64,000 bases of DNA from positions 3,583 to 67,582 of the forward strand of contig DFOS01000008.1 in NCBI GenBank assembly GCA_002376845.1, written 5' to 3'. This document shows, in pieces, positions 11,906 through 21,354 of this stretch (position 1 is its first letter; every line of letters starts with the position of its first letter). Position numbers and translations under genes: made by a program. The DNA is from Bdellovibrionaceae bacterium UBA3535. GTDB lineage: Bacteria > Bdellovibrionota > Bdellovibrionia > Bdellovibrionales > UBA840. Below the pieces are notes generated by a model. The model had not been told where the DNA came from, made no database searches, and saw only the letters and a program-made list of their open reading frames with translations.

Positions 11906-12100
11906 GCCTGTTGGTATAAAAGAAAAACATAAAAAATTCTAGGAAATTGTAAAAAACATCGACAGAAATTGGATGCAAACTAGCATAAATTTTCTGTTTA
12001 AAAAATCGACGAAAACCAAGGGATAAATTCTTAGAATTACTAGAAAAGTCTAAAATTCGTCAGGGAAATGTCGATAGATAAAGGTCTAGTGGAGTTTGTT

Positions 12101-13105
12101 ATGAAAAGAATAATTTCTAGTGCCGCAATTTTTTCCTTAGGTGGTTTTTTTATGATCGCCTACCAGAATTGTGCCGAAATAGATCCCTCCTATGTATACG
12201 ATGATAACGTAATCCATCAACAGCAAAAGCTAGTGGATAACTCCTTTATCGAAATGTCGAATTTAAAAATTCAGCACTCCGCCCTTACCAGTTTTAATGA
12301 GGGATTGGCCTACCAATTGTCAGCAGAGTTTAGGGTAAAATATACCAATCACTTTTTGGGTTTGGAGCCCCGGCTAGAGGATACAGAGCTTTTTGTTTAT
12401 AGCGGCGATAATATGATTTTAACTTTAAATACGGATAAAATTCGTTTGCATCAAAGAGAGTGTTACGAGTCCATAAAAGAAAATGGTAGTACATATTTTG
12501 ATTGTGTATACGAGCTGCAAACCAAACAAGTCTTATCGAGAAACCCGAACTTATTAAAAACAAAGGATTTGCATATTGGTAACCGTGATCAAAAACTTGT
12601 AATCCTATTAGATAAGTATGAAGAAAATCTTGGTGGGAAATCATTTAAAATCAGTGCCATGTATGACAATCAATACACTCCTGTAAAAGAGGCTCCCAAG
12701 CGGATGCTTGCAGAATCACAAGCTAGAAGTGTAAAGAAAGTTAGAAAACAAAAGACAAAAATCACCAAAGTAAAACAGCCGCAAAGAAAAGTGGTTGAAG
12801 TAAAAAAGAAAACACCATTGCCAGAAGGGCTTTTTTGTCACATACAAGTTTTAAACCCACCGCACCTGGAGCTTTTATCGGATGTGAAAAAGGTGGGGGA
12901 GTACTACAGTGATCGCAACAATTGCCGCCAAGTCGCGATTCGTATTTCGCAAAATTACTGTGATCGCTCCCTAATGGGGGAGATCGATTACTCACTTAGT
13001 ATCAAAAATAACCAAGGCGGAAGGGTTCGCGTTCTAAATAAAGAGATCGACAGCATAGACTGCGAGAAAGAAAATTCTCGGGGGCTTGCCCAAAGAAATT
13101 TCTAG
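12101..13105 (+). CDS. hypothetical lipoprotein
   Basis: Signal MKRIISSAAIFSLGGFFMIAYQNC followed by Cys. Central basic patch (KKVRKQKTKITKVKQPQRK). No recognisable domain. Confidence 0.5.
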   Translation: MKRIISSAAIFSLGGFFMIAYQNCAEIDPSYVYDDNVIHQQQKLVDNSFIEMSNLKIQHSALTSFNEGLAYQLSAEFRVKYTNHFLGLEPRLEDTELFVYSGDNMILTLNTDKIRLHQRECYESIKENGSTYFDCVYELQTKQVLSRNPNLLKTKDLHIGNRDQKLVILLDKYEENLGGKSFKISAMYDNQYTPVKEAPKRMLAESQARSVKKVRKQKTKITKVKQPQRKVVEVKKKTPLPEGLFCHIQVLNPPHLELLSDVKKVGEYYSDRNNCRQVAIRISQNYCDRSLMGEIDYSLSIKNNQGGRVRVLNKEIDSIDCEKENSRGLAQRNF

Positions 13106-13137: not shown

Positions 13138-13416
13138 ATGGACTATTTCGAGCCGCAAAATCCGGCCTATATAAAGAAAGAGCGAGCCAAGGCCAGGGAG
13201 CTGCGCAAGAGCCAGTGGTGGAAACAGAAATTGGCCACAGGCATCTGTTATTATTGCGAGCAACGCTTCGATAAGGAAGATTTGAATATGGATCATCTGA
13301 TTCCCCTAGTTCGAGGTGGAAAAACTAGCAAATCCAACTGCGTCCTCTCTTGTAAGGCCTGCAATTTCAAGAAAAAGCACAAAACCCCGGTGGACCTTAT
13401 TTTAGAGGAGCTCTAA
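13138..13416 (+). CDS. small free-standing HNH endonuclease
   Basis: 92 aa with zinc-ribbon CYYC...CKAC and HNH core DHLIPLVRGGKTSKSN. Confidence 0.8.
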   Translation: MDYFEPQNPAYIKKERAKARELRKSQWWKQKLATGICYYCEQRFDKEDLNMDHLIPLVRGGKTSKSNCVLSCKACNFKKKHKTPVDLILEEL

Positions 13417-13634
13417 TTTTATGCCAATTTATTGAGCGTTTTATGGGGTGTGGGTTCTGGATGAAGGAAGACATTCCTTGCCTAGAATGACAGATTTTTC
13501 AACATTGGGGCCTCGCTTAATTGCTTAGAATTCAGGTAAATTCTTATTTTTGTTTGGTTTTTTCCGCTTTAGTCTTGCCATAAAGGGACATTCTTCGCTT
13601 AAATAAGCGTAGTTCCAAATCAACGAGGTGAAAC

Positions 13635-15542
13635 TTGGCGCAGCAGACAAAAATTGTATCCAGCTCTACGGCGGAATATTTTGCAAAAAATTTACAGCAG
13701 GTGGGCTTCTCGTCCCCCACAAAAGCCGTGCTTACCACATTGAAAGAGGCGGTGGATAACTCTCTGGATGCTTGTGAAATGGCGGGTATTTTGCCCGAAC
13801 TTACCATTGAGATTAAAAAAATTGGTACCGGCTCACAGAAAAATACCGATTTGATCGAAATATCCGTGGAGGACAATGGGCCAGGGCTTGAGGCCGAGGA
13901 TTTGGCAAAAGTATTTGGCGAGTACTTGGCCTCCTCAAAGTTTGGACGCGGACAATGCTCCCGCGGACAACAAGGGATTGGTATTTCTGCCGCAACCACT
14001 TGGGCGCAGTTGACCAACGCCAAAGGCGTAGTGGTCACCTCGAAAACCAAGCGCATGCGAAAGGCAGTGCAGGGCCTCGTGAATGTTGATATCAAGGGTA
14101 ACAAGGGGATGTTTTTAAATAAAAAAAGCATCGATTGGGATAAAGAGCATGGCCTGAAAGTAGAATTCAAAATTGATGGGCGCATTCAGCTAAATGGTGA
14201 TGGGGGGCTGTTGACCTATCTAGAGGGCACCACCCTTTTAAACCCCCATGTAAAATTTAATTACAAATTGATGGACAATCCTTGGGTAAAGATAGATCGA
14301 GTTAGTAAAGATGTGCCTAGCATTCCGCCGCCAACTGATCCGCACCCGCACACCATGAAGCTGGGTGAGTTTATGACCCATGCACATATCTATGGAAATA
14401 TGAAAGTGGGCAAGTGGCTCAAAACAAGTTTCTCCCGTGTTTCAGAGAACGTTATAAAAAACTTTGTTAAAAACGGTTTAGAAAAAAAGTACCTCAATCA
14501 AACTTTACAAAAACTATCGGACGAAGAGTTTAAAAAGGCCTATACGGCCATTCAAAAAACCGATTTGATGTCACCGAGCACCAAGTCTGTACTGACGGTT
14601 GGAGAGGAGTCCCTAGCAAAAAGTATTCGGCGTATGGGAGAAGTGGATTTTTTCTCAGTAATAACTAGAAAGCCCAAAATATGTGACTTCAAGCCCGTAG
14701 TGGTGGAAGTTGCCATTGCAAGATTTTTAGATCGCGGTGGAGAGCATGACGATCCTGTACGACTTCTGCGCTTTGCGAACCGTGTGCCGCTACAATTCGA
14801 TAAGGGAAATTGCGCCATTACAAAATCCATTGAATCCGTGAACTGGCGCTCCTACGGACTGTCGCAGCCAAAAAATTCTTTGCCGCGCGGACCTTATATT
14901 TTTGCGGTGAGTGTGGTTTCTCCTTTCATTAAATTTAAAAATGCTTCAAAAGAAACGATCGATGCGTCAGACGAGTTGGTGGAGGAGTTGCGCCGAGCCC
15001 TAATGCAGGCGGGACAAAACCTTTCTAGGCATATCAAAAGAGAAGCTAGAGCTGCAGATGTAGAAAGGAAAAAGCAGCACATAGAAAAGTTTGGCCCCAT
15101 TCTTGTGGACACATTGGCGCGCATAGTGAAAGCGCCAGAAAAGAGGCGCAAAAAAGCGCAAGATGGTTTGCATAAGATTTTAGGACGTGACACCAAGGCA
15201 GAAGAGCAAAAGCTAGAGGTTGCCGAACAGCGCTTAATGGATTTAAAAGCAAAACGTTCCCACGTTTTAGAAACAAATGAAGAGGGCGAAGGCGCTAGCC
15301 AAGAGGCTCCAGTCACCGAAGTGAAGGCGAAGAAAAAGAAAACAGCAACGAAAAAGCAGGCTGCGAAGAAAAAAGCAAAAACGGCAAGCAAAAAGAAGGC
15401 CACCAAAAAGAAAACGGCTACAAAAAAGAAAGCTAGTAAAAAGAAAACGGCTACAAAAAAGAAAGCTAGTAAAAAGCAGGCTACTAAGAAAAAGACAAAA
15501 GCTAAGAAGGCCACAAAAAAGAAAACTAAGAGGACTCGATGA
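13635..15542 (+). CDS. top6B: DNA topoisomerase VI subunit B (type IIB, GHKL ATPase) with Lys-rich C-terminal tail
   Basis: Bergerat-fold motifs LKEAVDNSLDA, VEDNGPGL, GQQGIGIS. Alignable by eye to archaeal Top6B through PHPH...ITRKPK...LLRFANRVPLQFD. TTG start preceded by SD gaggtg. ATGA overlap with top6A. Confidence 0.88.
   Translation: MAQQTKIVSSSTAEYFAKNLQQVGFSSPTKAVLTTLKEAVDNSLDACEMAGILPELTIEIKKIGTGSQKNTDLIEISVEDNGPGLEAEDLAKVFGEYLASSKFGRGQCSRGQQGIGISAATTWAQLTNAKGVVVTSKTKRMRKAVQGLVNVDIKGNKGMFLNKKSIDWDKEHGLKVEFKIDGRIQLNGDGGLLTYLEGTTLLNPHVKFNYKLMDNPWVKIDRVSKDVPSIPPPTDPHPHTMKLGEFMTHAHIYGNMKVGKWLKTSFSRVSENVIKNFVKNGLEKKYLNQTLQKLSDEEFKKAYTAIQKTDLMSPSTKSVLTVGEESLAKSIRRMGEVDFFSVITRKPKICDFKPVVVEVAIARFLDRGGEHDDPVRLLRFANRVPLQFDKGNCAITKSIESVNWRSYGLSQPKNSLPRGPYIFAVSVVSPFIKFKNASKETIDASDELVEELRRALMQAGQNLSRHIKREARAADVERKKQHIEKFGPILVDTLARIVKAPEKRRKKAQDGLHKILGRDTKAEEQKLEVAEQRLMDLKAKRSHVLETNEEGEGASQEAPVTEVKAKKKKTATKKQAAKKKAKTASKKKATKKKTATKKKASKKKTATKKKASKKQATKKKTKAKKATKKKTKRTR
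15324..15539 (+). repeat. Lys/Ala/Thr/Ser-rich low-complexity coding repeat (Top6B tail, 72 aa)
   Basis: Sequence is [72 protein letters not shown]. Contains an exact 33-nt tandem duplication at 15408-15440 / 15441-15473 (KKTATKKKASK x2). Confidence 0.9.
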
Positions 15543-16693
15543 AAAAAGCCAGACTCAATCAAGCAGATATAAGCAAAAAATCCAAACTTCTATGCGAAAG
15601 AATGTTGGCCGATCTGGAGCAGGCAAAAAGGCCTGTACTCGAAGCGGTTAAGTGTAGTTTGGACAACTCTTTTTACAAGCCCAGTGTGGGTTACTTAACA
15701 CCTGGAGATAAGCGGGTCCGCACGGAATTAAATGTTTCCAGTGTGCAAAAACTATCGCGAACCGTTTTTATGCTAGAGATTCTTTTGCGCAATTTAGGGA
15801 CTGGCCAAGTGAACACAAAAAGGGAGCTCTACTATATCTCAAAAGGTATGGTGAAGCACAATAAGGAGCTCAAGGTCTTAGATTTTGATGAACAAACCGA
15901 ATCGGATGCAATCATCGACTTTATTTCGGATATGCTCGAGGTATATCGTGAGGAGTTAAATTGCTTTGCCAACGACCGAGGAGGGCAAACCTATTCCAAG
16001 CAATTGATTGTGGAAGAAACTTTACCGAACGGCAAAACGGCAACCATTGATTTAAGCACTTTGGGTACTTCGCCGTTTCAACCTAAGAACAAGCCGCAAA
16101 ATTTAAAACTTAGAAAACGCGGAAAGATTGATTTCGTATTGATCGTGGAATCAGAAGGTACGGCCAATACACTTGTTGCTAACGGCTTTACGGACCGTAA
16201 TAAGTGTATTGTGATTGGTGCTCAGGGGGTTCCCTCCAACGCTGTTCGCGGTTGGGCTCGTACCATTCAAAACCAGTTGGATGTACCCATGTATTTTTTT
16301 GGCGATTTGGATGCCTATACGCTGCAAAATATCTACCGCACATTAAAAGCCGGTAGTGCTGCCAGCCTGATACGAAATAGTGAGTTTTCCGCCCCCTCCG
16401 TGCGCTTTTTAGGGGTTCTACCAGAGGATGTACAGCAATACGATTTGCACTATTACAATGTAACGGAAAAAGATGCTTCCGAGCTGCGATCCATCAAAAA
16501 GGCGCAAGATGCCCTTAAAAATGATCCATTTTTCCAAGACAAGAAAAATAAAAAAATTGCGGCAATTTTGAAATGGTTGGTAAAAGAAAAAAAGCGTTGT
16601 GAACAGCAGGCTTTTTGGATGGTTAACCCGAAAGACCCTGTTACACCTGAAAAAATCATTTTGGATAAAATCAAAAAAGGCGCCTGGGTCTAA
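15539..16693 (+). CDS. top6A: DNA topoisomerase VI subunit A (Spo11/Top6A)
   Basis: Catalytic-Tyr region KRELYYISK. Toprim Glu (LIVESEGTA) and DxD (FFGDLDAYT). The 384-aa size is typical of Top6A. Confidence 0.88.
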   Translation: MKKARLNQADISKKSKLLCERMLADLEQAKRPVLEAVKCSLDNSFYKPSVGYLTPGDKRVRTELNVSSVQKLSRTVFMLEILLRNLGTGQVNTKRELYYISKGMVKHNKELKVLDFDEQTESDAIIDFISDMLEVYREELNCFANDRGGQTYSKQLIVEETLPNGKTATIDLSTLGTSPFQPKNKPQNLKLRKRGKIDFVLIVESEGTANTLVANGFTDRNKCIVIGAQGVPSNAVRGWARTIQNQLDVPMYFFGDLDAYTLQNIYRTLKAGSAASLIRNSEFSAPSVRFLGVLPEDVQQYDLHYYNVTEKDASELRSIKKAQDALKNDPFFQDKKNKKIAAILKWLVKEKKRCEQQAFWMVNPKDPVTPEKIILDKIKKGAWV

Positions 16694-17169
16694 TCAAACT
16701 TGCGTTTTTCGCGCTCCACTCTGGGGCGCTCGGCAAAGTCAAAAAACGAGGGAGGTAGTTTTTCTACCTCACGGCGCATGCGCTCAAGCTCCACCTTTTT
16801 CTTTTCAGCCGCTTCTTTTGCGTTTTTGTCGCGCTCTTTGATGAATTCTTTGCGGTTTTTCTCTTCAGCAATTTGCGCCTGCTTTTGCTGTTCAAGGTAT
16901 TCTTCATAGGCTTTTTGCTCGGCAGCCTTTTGTTCCGCCATTTTTTTGCGCTTTTCTATGATGTATTCTTTTCTGGCCTGCTCTTTTTCCTGTTCGAGTT
17001 TTTCACGTTTTTTTCTTTGCTCTATTTGTGCTCGTTTTTGTTTTTCCTTTTGCTCTACTTTTTGGCGAATGTAATCCGCGTAATTTGGGTCTTCTTGGAA
17101 GCGAATTTCTTCGTCCAAATTTTGGTAGTAGATCTGTGAGAAGCAAAGGCTAAGGAGTAAAAACCACAT
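16690..17169 (-). CDS. hypothetical secreted Lys/Glu/Gln-rich coiled-coil protein
   Basis: Trimmed to the ATG at 17169 (signal-like MWFLLLSLCFSQIYY). About 120 aa of EK-rich heptad-like sequence. Overlaps the top6A stop by 4 nt, tail to tail. Confidence 0.45.
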   Translation of the reverse strand: MWFLLLSLCFSQIYYQNLDEEIRFQEDPNYADYIRQKVEQKEKQKRAQIEQRKKREKLEQEKEQARKEYIIEKRKKMAEQKAAEQKAYEEYLEQQKQAQIAEEKNRKEFIKERDKNAKEAAEKKKVELERMRREVEKLPPSFFDFAERPRVEREKRKFD

Positions 17170-17258
17170 ATGTTTAGTATTGCTTAGAATGTACAAAAAC
17201 CCAACGGATCTGTTAAGTGCAACTGGACGCAGGACTGGCTGACACAGCGCTAATAGCG

Positions 17259-17286
17259 TTGAGACTGAAGGCACTTCTGTTATAAA
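17259..17286 (+). promoter_or_regulatory. candidate sigma-70-type promoter of the aconitase gene
   Basis: TTGAGA (17259-17264), 16-nt spacer, TATAAA (17281-17286), 26 nt upstream of the ATG at 17312, which has SD taggag. Confidence 0.35.
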
Positions 17287-17311
17287 TACTGTACATGATA
17301 TAGGAGATCAG

Positions 17312-19939
17312 ATGGCGATTGAAACAACACCTAAAATGGTAAAATCTGTGTATGCAAATACTCGTAAAAATTTAGATATTATACGCAAGCGCTTAAAGCG
17401 CCCCCTTACGTTGGCAGAAAAAATTCTTTATGGACATTTAAGAGAGCCAAAAACTCAAGATCTTACGCGCGGAAAAAGTTTCTTGATGCTACAGCCAGAT
17501 CGCGTGGCCATGCAAGATGCAACGGCACAGATGGCCTTGTTGCAGTTCATGCTTGCGGGAAAAGAAGAGGCAGCTGTTCCCTCTACCGTGCATTGTGATC
17601 ATTTGATTCGTGCCAACGCGGGTGAAGAAATTGATATGCAAATTGCCATGAGTGAAAACAAAGAGGTATTTGATTTCTTAGAAAGTGTTTCTTCACGCTA
17701 TGGAATTGGCTTTTGGAAGCCAGGTGCTGGCATCATCCATCAGGTGGTTTTAGAAAATTACGCATTTCCAGGTGGTTTGATGATTGGTACAGATTCTCAT
17801 ACGCCTAATGCTGGTGGCTTGGGAATGTGTGCTGTGGGTGTTGGCGGAGCCGATGCCGCGGATGTGATGAGCGGTTTGGCTTGGGAAGTGAAAAACCCAA
17901 AACTTATCGGCGTGCATCTTAAAGGCGAGCTTAGTGGCTGGGCTTCACCTAAAGATGTGATCCTAAAACTATGTGATATCTTAACCGTAAAGGGCGGTAC
18001 CAATTGCATTGTGGAGTATTTTGGTGAAGGTACAGAGTCTTTATCTTGTACAGGTAAGGGCACGATTTGCAATATGGGAGCCGAACTTGGAGCTACTTGT
18101 TCTGTATTTCCTTATGATCACCGTATGGGCGATTATTTAAAAGCTACGAAACGAAAAGATTTAGCGGAAATAGCCAATGCCAATATGGATTTGGTTACTG
18201 CCGATGCGGAAGTATTGGAAAACCCAGAAACTTATTATGATCAGATTATTGAGATTGATTTATCGGGCTTAGAGCCACACTTGGTAGGGCCGCATACCCC
18301 CGATCTTGCCCACAAAATTAGTGATATGGGCGATGATGCCAAAGAGAATGGTTGGGATACGCACCTGTCGGCAGCATTGATCGGCTCTTGTACGAACTCT
18401 TCTTATGAAGATATAGGTCGGGCTGCTGACTTGGTAGAGCAGGCAAAAAGCAAGGGACTAAAAATGAAAACGCCTTTTTATGTTACTCCTGGCTCTATGC
18501 AAATTCATAAAACCATTGAACGTGATGGACAGATGCAGTCCTTTAAGGATGTTGGCGCAGTCGTGTTGGCCAATGCATGTGGACCTTGTATCGGACAATG
18601 GAAGCGAGATGATATTGAAAAAGGTGATGTAAACACCATTGTTACCTCGTTCAATAGAAATTTTCGCGGCAGAAACGATGCCAACCCCGAAACCTTAGGT
18701 TTTATTGGGGGGCCCGAGCTGGTAACCGCTTTAGGTTTTGCTGGGGAGTTGGATTTTAACCCTATGACCGATAGTATACCACTAGAGGATGGCGGGGAAT
18801 TTCGTTTTCAGGCACCGAAAGCACCCGAGTTTCCAGAAAATGGTTTTATTGCCGATGAACAAGGTTATGTAGAACCAAAAGGCGAGGGGGTAGATGTGAA
18901 AGTTTCCCCTGCCTCGGATCGCTTGCAACTGCTTACGCCCTTTCAGCCCTGGAAAGGCAAAGATTTAGAGGATTTGCCTCTATTGCTAAAGGCAAAAGGT
19001 AAGTGTACGACCGATCATATTTCTCCAGCTGGTCCTTGGTTGAAATATCGAGGACATCTAGACAATATTTCGGACAATATGTTCATCGGGGCCGTAAATG
19101 CTTTTACTGATGAAATTGGTACAGTCAATCACCCTATTAGTGGCGATAAAAATCAAAACACATCAAAGGTAGCCCGTGATTTAAAATCAAAAGGCAAACA
19201 ATGGGTAGTAGTTGGTGACGATAACTATGGCGAAGGCAGTTCCCGTGAACATGCAGCAATGAGCCCGAGGTTTTTAGGTGCAGCAGCCGTTATAGTGAAA
19301 TCCTTTGCTCGCATTCATGAAACCAATTTAAAAAAGCAAGGAGTGCTCGCGTTAACCTTTGTTCATCCAGAGGATTACGATAAGGTTCGTGAGGACGATG
19401 CCATTTCGATCAAAGGTTTGAAGGGTTTTGCTCCTGGAAAAAATATGACCATGGTTTTGAGTCATGCCGATGGTTCCAAGGAGGAAATCGAGGTTCAACA
19501 TTCTTATAATAAGGAACAGATTGAGTGGTTCAAGGCTGGCTCGGCGTTGAATGTAATTCGTCAAGGCTTGGACAAGCCTAAAAAGAAAAAGGCTACTAAG
19601 AAGAAGGCGACGAAGAAGAAAGCTACTAAAAAGAAAGCCACCAAGAAGAAGGTAACCAAGAAAAAGGCGACGAAGAAGAAAGCTACAAAGAAAAAGGCCA
19701 CCAAGAAGAAGGCGACGAAGAAGAGAGCTACTAAGAAAAAGGCCACCAAGAAGAAGGTAACCAAGAGGAAGGCGACGAAGAAGAAAGCTACTAAGAAAAA
19801 GGCCACTAAAAAGAAAGCAACCAAGAAGAAAGCCACTAAAAAGAAAGCAACCAAGAAGAAGGCAACCAAGAAGAAGGCAACTAAGAAAAAGGCGACGAAG
19901 AAGAAAGCTATTAGAAATAAAGCCAAACACAAGAAATAA
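17312..19939 (+). CDS. acn: aconitate hydratase (mitochondrial-type, ~755-aa core) fused to a 119-aa poly-(KKKAT) tail
   Basis: Core motifs are [44 protein letters not shown] and [10 protein letters not shown] (Fe-S Cys ligands), plus the swivel domain [15 protein letters not shown]. The tail is in frame with no intervening stop. Confidence 0.92.
19580..19936 (+). repeat. 15-nt-period in-frame tandem repeat encoding ~22 KKKAT-type pentapeptides
   Basis: Hand parse into codons. Units start at 19583 + 15n. A higher-order 105-nt duplication (19598-19702 vs 19703-19807) shows about 7 differences. An exact ~29-30-nt tandem duplication lies around 19802-19860. Confidence 0.95.
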
Positions 19940-20349
19940 GAAAAAAATCAATATCACGTAGGCTCTTGTTATTTAGACGAGAGCTTATGTGATAGAATCA
20001 TCCCTGCACTCCATACGAATGGCCAGTACAGACTATATACAAAAAAACAGAGTCTTTTCGTTGTATACGGTTTATCTTGTATGCAAAAGTTTGGCTTTTT
20101 AAAACCTTAGTCCTGCTTTTTCTATATTTATGAATCATAAGAGTCAGAAAAAACCTTTTATTAGTGTCACCTTTGTTTGCATTAAAAAAAACTAATCAGA
20201 TTTTCAAAGATTTTAGATAATTTCATTTTCAGATCTAAACAAAAAAAATAGTTATAATAAGGACTTACAAAGCGAATAAGACCTATGGCCAGTTGAGAAA
20301 ATTCGGCACAGGTTTTGCTCTTATTTATAAAGATGTAATAGGGGGCAGA

Positions 20350-21354
20350 ATGAAATTTGTGAATCTTCGCTTAATACAAATAGTTTCCATATTTTCTTTA
20401 GTAGGTTGTTCTGGAGACGTGGGCTTTGAAAAAATAGCAGAAGACTCATCTCCGCAAGGTTCAGGCAGTTTTAAAAGTTTTACGGAAGTTTTCTATCAGG
20501 ATTCAGAAGAGCCTATGCTGGACATTCTTGTTATCGTAGACAACTCACCCTCAATGCGTGCAGAGCAAGAAAGGCTAGGAAAGCGAATGCAGAGTTTTAC
20601 GGGACAATTAAGAGATGTTGATTGGCAAATAGCTGTTACGAACACGGATATATCCGATAGCATCCATTCTCTGAAGGGGGCGCTGTTAAGCTTTAATAAT
20701 TCAAATAAAAAATTATTAACGAAATCAGATCCCAACTACAATCAATTGTTTCTAGATGCAGTCGTTATGGAGGAAGCAGCGGATTGTATAGGGGGATGTC
20801 CTAGCACGACAGAGGAGCCGCTTGCAGCGCTTAGCCTGGCGATTCGAAAGAGCACATCGGAGAATAAAGATTTGTTTCGATCAAAAGCAGATTTTGCTGT
20901 GATTGTTATTAGTGATGAAGATGAAAAAAGTAATGGACCAGAGGATGCAACAAAGCCTACCGAAGTTCTATCACTTATGGAAAGTCTTTATCCCAATAAA
21001 ACCTTTACGGTAAATGGGGTCATTATCGAGCCAGGAGATACCGACTGCAAAGATCTGCAAGGAGTTGACGGAAAGTATGGTACTCATGTTGCAGAGTTTG
21101 CCGGACTTACCAATGGTATTACTACAAGTATATGTGCTCCGGACTATGGAGCTGGTTTGGCAGCAATTGGTCAGGGCGCTAGGCGATTGCTGAACTCGGT
21201 AAAGCTAACAAATATGCCGGCAGTAGAATCTGTATCCGTTGCATTTTCGCCTTATCATAAAACTAAGTTTACAGTAGTTGGTAAGACGGTGATCTTTGAT
21301 GTTCCGCCTAAAAAAGGAACTCAGATCCAAGTTAGCTATGACATTCAAAACTAA
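20350..21354 (+). CDS. lipoprotein with von Willebrand factor A-like domain
   Basis: Trimmed to the ATG at 20350. Lipobox SLVGC. MIDAS-like LVIVDNSPSM (DxSxS), plus IVISDEDE. Confidence 0.6.
   Translation: MKFVNLRLIQIVSIFSLVGCSGDVGFEKIAEDSSPQGSGSFKSFTEVFYQDSEEPMLDILVIVDNSPSMRAEQERLGKRMQSFTGQLRDVDWQIAVTNTDISDSIHSLKGALLSFNNSNKKLLTKSDPNYNQLFLDAVVMEEAADCIGGCPSTTEEPLAALSLAIRKSTSENKDLFRSKADFAVIVISDEDEKSNGPEDATKPTEVLSLMESLYPNKTFTVNGVIIEPGDTDCKDLQGVDGKYGTHVAEFAGLTNGITTSICAPDYGAGLAAIGQGARRLLNSVKLTNMPAVESVSVAFSPYHKTKFTVVGKTVIFDVPPKKGTQIQVSYDIQN

Follow-up and report, generated by a model that had tools for sequence, protein, structure and literature searches.

In actinobacteria, TopA, Ku, HupB/Hlp/HupS and the sigma factor HrdB carry terminal tails that are low in complexity, rich in Lys and Ala, fast-evolving and free of acidic residues, and the lysine repeats of TopA, Ku and Hlp/HupB confer or modulate DNA binding (PMC7398561, PMC3553676, PMC5676037). 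In this study, we describe a tail of the same character on an aconitase, encoded at 17312..19939 on the forward (+) strand of a 64,000-nucleotide stretch of DNA (contig DFOS01000008.1, positions 3,583 to 67,582; hereafter the window) from Bdellovibrionaceae bacterium UBA3535. Here, as in actinobacteria, such tails were added to ordinary folded proteins and arose repeatedly on unrelated ones. However, the actinobacterial carriers are all DNA-binding, have PAKKA/AKKA-type repeats and come from GC-rich genomes, whereas the carrier here is an enzyme of the tricarboxylic acid (TCA) cycle in a 42% GC Bdellovibrionales genome. The aconitase repeat is also unusually regular (KKKAT x22), and its charge density is higher (61% K+R). 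The lysine-repeat module itself is already known; the carrier is unexpected, and its recruitment is repeated.

Similar polycationic, short-period Lys/Ala/Thr(Pro) repeats make up chlamydial Hc2 (PF07382) and Pseudomonas AlgP. Hc2 acts in a biphasic life cycle, in which it condenses the nucleoid. Both are stand-alone structural or regulatory proteins, whereas the aconitase tail is fused to an enzyme and lacks an HC2 match at E <= 10. Aconitases that associate with nucleic acid have also been described. IRP1 and apo-aconitases bind specific RNA sequences through the opened active-site cleft, and only after loss of the cluster; a non-specific tail implies nothing of this type. IRP1 and bacterial AcnA and AcnB moonlight on nucleic acid, but they belong to a different subfamily and the analogy is functional at best. 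Yeast mitochondrial Aco1 binds, stabilises and protects mitochondrial DNA (mtDNA) independently of catalysis (PMC7463775, citing Chen et al. 2005, 2007). Aco1 is a bifunctional TCA enzyme of the same subfamily as the window protein (mitochondrial type, TIGR01340); it acts without a polycationic tail, its folded protein binding DNA, whereas here an appended module would do so. In Caulobacter, aconitase is a component of the RNA degradosome and of bacterial ribonucleoprotein bodies, or BR-bodies (PMC4245959, PMC9882336). It is likewise recruited to a nucleic-acid-rich compartment, but by protein contact with RNase E rather than by a covalent polycation.

The aconitase gene is a single uninterrupted open reading frame (ORF) of 875 aa. 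A Shine-Dalgarno-like AGGAG (17302..17306, +), read directly from the sequence, lies 5 nt before the ATG, and a TAA stop codon (19937..19939, +) closes the frame. Residues 1-756 (17312..19579, +) are a complete mitochondrial-type aconitate hydratase of four domains, which continues without a stop into an appended tail of residues 757-875. The core matched the NCBIfam model TIGR01340 (aconitase_mito) with 1111.6 bits against a cut-off of 825.35, residues 14-749 covering model positions 1-745 of 745. Pfam placed PF00330 (Aconitase) at residues 36-478 (E = 1e-139) and PF00694 (Aconitase_C) at residues 557-684 (E = 8e-37), and the catalytic domains and the C-terminal swivel domain all lie within one chain. 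Bovine and pig mitochondrial aconitase (PDB 1aco, 7acn and others) aligned with residues 17-751 at ~1004 bits. The chain of the pig enzyme runs only 4 residues beyond this alignment, which puts the start of the extra sequence exactly at the native C-terminus.

The iron-sulfur cysteines were also found in place. Cys360 (codon 18389..18391, +), the first [4Fe-4S] ligand, aligns with pig Cys358 of 1aco and is invariant in 40 orthologues. The second and third ligands, in Cys423-Gly-Pro-Cys426 (codons 18578..18589, +), correspond to pig Cys421 and Cys424 by the same alignment and the same 40 orthologues. The GEGSSREH motif and the substrate-binding Arg, Ser, His and Asp residues are kept relative to 1aco and are invariant in the 40 orthologues. 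An AlphaFold2 (AF2) model built on a 40-sequence alignment gave most 10-residue blocks of the core a predicted local distance difference test score (pLDDT) of 75-97; loops dipped to 52-67, and the same loops hold segments below 50. By every sequence feature compared, the gene product is a mitochondrial-type aconitase, and it is predicted to be catalytically competent. The initial annotation, made from the DNA letters with no database search, had read the core in this way, with its Fe-S cysteines and swivel domain intact and its frame open into the tail, and the family models, the 1aco alignment and the single ORF all agree with it. It had also invoked IRP1 and bacterial apo-aconitases as a precedent for nucleic-acid binding. 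This precedent comes from another subfamily, as the protein scored only 241.7 bits with TIGR01341, the AcnA/IRP subfamily model, against a cut-off of 945; of the aconitases it named, only yeast Aco1 is of the same mitochondrial type.

The tail (residues 757-875; 19580..19936, +) was delimited by repeat structure, composition, the AF2 model, divergence between repeats and codon use. Its 119 residues are one K, then 22 pentapeptides (17 KKKAT, 2 KKKVT, 1 KKRAT, 1 KRKAT and 1 KKKAI), then RNKAKHKK, exactly as first described for this protein. It contains 69 K and 3 R, lacks D and E, and so has a net charge of +72; the rest is mainly A and T. Tandem Repeats Finder reported a period of 15 nt in 21.5 copies and a higher-order period of 105 nt (score 490). 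In the AF2 model, residues 755-875 had a pLDDT of ~26 with no helix or strand, and the tail is thus predicted to be intrinsically disordered. By composition, position and predicted disorder it falls in the functional class of H1-like lysine-repeat tails, which are terminal low-complexity segments with at least 35-40% Lys, many Ala, Thr, Ser or Pro and essentially no acidic residues; here the segment is extreme C-terminal. In composition it is also an analogue of the C-terminal domain of histone H1.

We examined how the repeat is written at the codon level. The 22 units occur as 16 DNA variants that encode 5 peptide variants, and all four Ala codons and all four Thr codons are used. Codon differences between pairs of units were synonymous in 551 cases and non-synonymous in 103. 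When the three 35-codon blocks of the 105-nt period were treated as paralogues, synonymous divergence (pS) between blocks was 0.33-0.75 and non-synonymous divergence (pN) was 0.012-0.036, giving pN/pS of 0.018-0.073. Lysine codon usage differed between the core (38 AAA, 18 AAG) and the tail (21 AAA, 48 AAG; Fisher p = 3.5e-5), and the AAG share was 32% in the core vs 70% in the tail. The longest A-run in the tail is 5 nt, against ~10 nt expected under core codon usage (P < 1e-4) and ~8 nt expected from shuffling the codons of the tail itself (P = 0.0175). These patterns indicate that the tail is kept by selection. The avoidance of A-runs would be sensible only if the cell benefits from transcribing and translating the tail without error, and such codon-level signatures imply that the tail must be translated.

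Repeats are error-prone in short-read assemblies, and a tail could in principle be produced by sequencing, assembly or annotation, or be cleaved off and thus be missing from the mature enzyme. The initial annotation had named a repeat artefact, or a stop or frameshift at ~19577, as what would undo its reading, and we looked for these. The same 2628-nt gene was found with 0 mismatches in three more assemblies (ENA ERZ908576 from Tara run ERR599142, GCA_001372055.1 and Logan SRR5324454), which makes four independently produced assemblies with one identical sequence. The window is part of a 677,539-bp Tara Oceans scaffold. The longest exact repeat within the tail is only 29 nt, below typical assembly k-mers, and short reads are therefore unlikely to have collapsed or expanded it. 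We found no stop or frameshift, and the signatures of selection require translation. The tail is not an assembly artefact, and we consider any explanation by artefact or processing to be extremely unlikely.

As a separate observation, the tail DNA (19583-19936, +) contains many G-AAA-AAG and T-AAA-AAG heptamers. The dnaX-type -1 slippery site is A-AAA-AAG, and the heptamers of the tail are near-matches to it. Both alternative frames across the tail reach stops within ~35 codons. Occasional frameshifting could, speculatively, produce shorter Arg-rich ends.

To see how widespread such tails are, we surveyed terminal extensions in orthologues, as had been suggested at the outset. The nearest homologues (69-76% identity) all come from metagenome-assembled genomes of Bdellovibrionales or Pseudobdellovibrionaceae, and the best match among GTDB species representatives was 75% identical. 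Lysine-rich tails were present on at least 10 other Bdellovibrionales aconitases, C-terminal in 3 and N-terminal in 7. Our literature search turned up no lysine-tailed aconitase, no lysine-rich tails in Bdellovibrio and no lysine-tailed metabolic enzymes in Bdellovibrionota. The statement of the initial annotation that it knew of no described aconitase with such a tail agrees with this search, but the protein is not unique, as the tailed database orthologues show.

The three C-tailed relatives (P0002, L004 and L056) have cores 72-77% identical to the window aconitase, and their repeat sequences differ. The tail of P0002 is 62 aa long, non-repetitive and has a net charge of +32, and that of L056 consists of 104 aa of KKKxx units. 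In L004, a close genome relative, the tail is made of KKKAPS hexapeptides. Perfect 18-nt repeats (12283-12383) encode them and run up to the end of the contig, where the tail is cut off. Such tails are probably often lost or shortened in assemblies, so that database counts of tailed proteins would be too low. The seven N-tailed orthologues (P0042, P0076, P0062, P0063, P0072, P0112 and L037) have extensions of 57-109 aa with net charges of +24 to +51. None of them keeps a Met at the canonical start, where the sequence instead reads FAIETTP, GVIETTP or the like, and these extensions must therefore be translated. We used a rough neighbour-joining tree of the aconitase cores for counting gains and found tailed proteins in four places: a C-tail clade, P0042 with P0076, P0062 with P0063, P0072 and P0112, and L037 alone. 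This rough tree suggests at least four gains of lysine tails on aconitase. Repeated gain at either terminus is what a position-independent electrostatic tether predicts.

The core of the window aconitase was found to be unusually acidic, with a net charge of -22 compared to a mean of -7.5 in 112 untailed orthologues. From sequence, the tail might fold back on this acidic core. Charge compensation as a general feature of tailed aconitases was considered and rejected, as only the window protein is unusually acidic and the group difference was not significant (p = 0.085).

A common low-complexity appendage on many proteins of this genome, which the initial annotation had raised against its own reading, was also looked for. 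A long lysine tail was found on 2 of 63 ORFs in the window and on none of 23 further ORFs on the same scaffold beyond it. In related loci, 3 of 621 ORFs other than aconitase and Topo VI-B had one, and one of these three is a truncated Topo VI-B. At the protein level, 9 of 120 aconitases were tailed vs 3 of 621 other ORFs (Fisher p = 8e-6). In the ORFs sampled, the tail is not a general low-complexity appendage.

The other tailed protein in the window, and the only one near the aconitase, is topoisomerase VI subunit B (Topo VI-B; 635 aa; 13635..15542, +), which acts on DNA and whose gene lies 1.8 kb upstream. It was identified from the Pfam families of the identical gene in L001 (HATPase_c and Topo-VIb_trans). 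Its last ~72 residues (~15324-15539, +) are, on translation, KKKAT-like repeats, and this tail resembles the lysine repeats of actinobacterial TopA. Bdellovibrionales orthologues of Topo VI-B have highly variable, low-complexity C-ends; most close with a shorter lysine-rich stretch, some are Thr-rich, and that of L025 has TTKKMAD/TTKKQAD repeats. Since Topo VI-B carries the same kind of tail, the module is a lineage-level device and not an invention of aconitase. Recent copying of the aconitase tail DNA from the Topo VI-B tail was considered and rejected, the longest common exact match being 15 nt.

The tail could also be a coding microsatellite that the enzyme tolerates, that has essentially no function and that grew by replication slippage or unequal recombination. 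The higher-order 105-nt period would fit this origin, as would the untailed state of most orthologues and the perfect 18-nt repeats of L004, which break its assembly and indicate ongoing expansion. However, pN/pS of 0.02-0.07 at near-saturated synonymous divergence, and a codon arrangement that avoids slippery A-runs, argue against neutrality. The C-terminal tails are shared by four relatives, the window protein included, whose cores differ by ~25%, N-terminal tails were gained independently in three further lineages, and such tails are rare on other ORFs. We therefore regard a neutral repeat as very unlikely.

We next considered where KKKAT-like modules occur in other proteins. A full HMMER scan with the tail against 1.84 billion representatives found 527 proteins at E <= 0.001; the true KKKAT-like ones among them have fusions to many domains, including WGR, HMG-box, RecQ helicase, GntR, HTH, SUKH/SMI1, DUF4272, DUF4912 and YjbR. 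A word-indexed search with the tail returned 126 candidates, mostly small SWIB-domain proteins, together with Toprim_C; low-complexity words are poorly indexed, and this search is a poor survey. Judging from these sequences, the module is a generic convergent polycation, often but not solely attached to DNA-related proteins.

Taken together, these data lead us to propose, tentatively and with a probability of roughly 45%, that the tail is an electrostatic tether of aconitase to nucleic acid, most likely the nucleoid. This is favoured because polycations bind polyanions non-specifically, the TopA, Ku and HupB tails act on DNA, Aco1 is an mtDNA nucleoid protein and the Bdellovibrio nucleoid is compact. 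The DNA-acting tailed neighbour Topo VI-B and the frequent DNA-related partners of KKKAT-like repeats in public proteins also speak for it. In the attack phase, that nucleoid is so compact that free proteins are excluded (PMC8445325). A disordered +72 polycation on the native C-terminus, at the end of the swivel domain, would form a sequence-independent electrostatic tether. It would hold the enzyme on a cellular polyanion, most probably nucleic acid, with nucleoid DNA as the first candidate and RNA as the second. Bacteria of this group typically have a compact nucleoid; the aconitase would then be located within it or on its surface, and it may add to the charge neutralisation and compaction of DNA. 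We infer the binding partner, the localisation and the physiological consequence alike.

The same charge and composition would suit other targets. The tail may tether the enzyme to a polyanion other than nucleic acid, such as polyphosphate (polyP) or the membrane, which would bring aconitase close to polyP or to the respiratory chain. One precedent is the lysine-repeat protein AlgP, which resembles histone H1 and localises to polyP granules (PMC9239181), and acidic lipids would be equally suitable partners; gains at either the N- or the C-terminus fit any electrostatic target. On the other hand, nearby lysine-rich tails occur on the DNA-acting Topo VI-B and on two ORFs without a known role, the locus has neither a polyP-metabolism gene nor a CHAD gene in its neighbourhood, and the tail lacks a hydrophobic or amphipathic element for membrane insertion. 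We consider this explanation unlikely.

Another explanation is that the tail drives association with RNA-dependent condensates or ribonucleoproteins and not tethering to the chromosome, as in the Caulobacter degradosome and BR-bodies or the lysine-rich intrinsically disordered regions (IDRs) of small nucleolar ribonucleoproteins. In favour of this are the presence of aconitase in the Caulobacter bodies, the predicted disorder of the tail and the finding that lysine-rich IDRs promote RNA-dependent compaction (PMC11528048). Recruitment in Caulobacter goes through RNase E and not through an aconitase tail, neither RNase E nor any other degradosome component is encoded in linkage with the locus, and the tailed neighbour Topo VI-B is a DNA enzyme. 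An RNA condensate is accordingly an improbable alternative in our view.

Several observations weigh against a nucleic-acid tether. A +72 polycation would be expected to bind RNA, ribosomes, polyphosphate or anionic lipids as well, and sequence cannot separate these targets. KKKAT-like repeats are also found on enzymes that do not act on DNA (a cytidylyltransferase, a glycosyltransferase and a PQQ propeller), and a lysine tail alone is therefore no proof of a DNA role. The tail of Ku from M. smegmatis decreased DNA affinity and did not increase it (PMC3553676). About 92% of aconitase orthologues are untailed, B. bacteriovorus-like ones included, and the function of the tail must therefore be dispensable in the lineage. 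P0003, with a 76% identical core, is untailed and is nested in the C-tail clade. The tail survey of the source genome sampled ~85 ORFs. The aconitase tail and the Topo VI-B tail, searched alone against Pfam at E <= 10, matched no family, PF07382 (HC2) included, and the whole aconitase gave no HC2 match at E <= 0.01. Homology of the tail to HC2 is thus not claimable, and its H1/Hc2 likeness is compositional, with no homology family. Several other KKKAT-type proteins give sub-threshold HC2 matches.

A stronger form of the nucleic-acid tether is possible but doubtful. In several Bdellovibrionales lineages, aconitase may have become a genuine nucleoid-associated (chromatin) protein through H1-like tails that arose convergently at either terminus. 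The tailed enzyme would then help to neutralise and compact the dense nucleoid and would couple the state of the chromosome to TCA, iron or redox status. Such a protein would parallel yeast Aco1 on mtDNA, as its hard-wired counterpart in bacteria.

DNA-acting bacterial proteins are known to carry lysine-repeat tails; here such tails occur repeatedly and selectively on a central metabolic enzyme. The enzyme belongs to the same aconitase subfamily as the one that moonlights on mtDNA in yeast, which suggests that attachment to nucleic acid is advantageous and has evolved several times by the simplest route. Tailed and untailed orthologues that are ~70-76% identical, with tails at either end, form a natural experiment. 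The tailed aconitases also add candidate chromatin components to a bacterial group notable for histones and an extremely compact nucleoid. This would surprise specialists in bacterial chromatin or moonlighting enzymes, and it is mechanistically not unprecedented. Should the tail do no more than change solubility, or play no part in binding, there is still strong purifying selection on a near-perfect coding repeat.

We also compared the surroundings of the gene. The order HNH, Topo VI-B, Topo VI-A, small gene and aconitase is conserved across the order, and the window aconitase is therefore the orthologous housekeeping aconitase. Topo VI, a type IIB topoisomerase, is uncommon in bacteria. Its subunit A (384 aa; 15539..16693, +), recognised by Pfam TP6A_N and TOP6A-Spo11_Toprim, is untailed. 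A small HNH-domain gene adjoins the genes for subunits B and A (13138-16693 in the window, and in L001, L039 and L040), and this synteny was seen in the loci whose gene tables we examined.

Between Topo VI-A and the aconitase lies an ORF of 194 aa (16690-17274, -), called as 159 aa in L001 and without a Pfam match. Its N-terminus is hydrophobic, and a long region rich in Lys, Glu and Gln is probably coiled-coil. Counterparts of similar size and position were found in the copies of the window genome (L001 and L003) and in the P0002 locus. A promoter scan of 16600-20400 gave promoter-like sites no more numerous than in shuffled sequence, and a terminator scan of the same region found none on the + strand after the aconitase stop. 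The minus-strand 'terminators' within the tail are by-products of the repeat. Two minus-strand ORFs (19352..19957 and 19561..19932) were rejected as genes, as they are Phe/Leu-rich antisense shadows of the lysine repeat.

Further along the scaffold, a complete rRNA operon (16S, two tRNAs, 23S and 5S) was located ~4-10 kb past the left end of the window (L042, 14787-20027). Upstream of the Topo VI genes, a 345-aa ORF (12068-13105, +) without a Pfam match contains an internal basic segment, VKKVRKQKTKITKVKQPQRKVVEVKKKTPL, and L004 encodes a homologue with a similar lysine-rich linker in its interior. In related genomes, we found a 144-aa ORF with an N-terminal AKKAAKKVTKK-type segment (L024, 13985-14419, +) and a 230-aa ORF with a C-terminal KKSAKKKKTAK tail (L007, 8139-8831, -). 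From their sequences, these two small lysine-ended ORFs may be stand-alone H1-like proteins.

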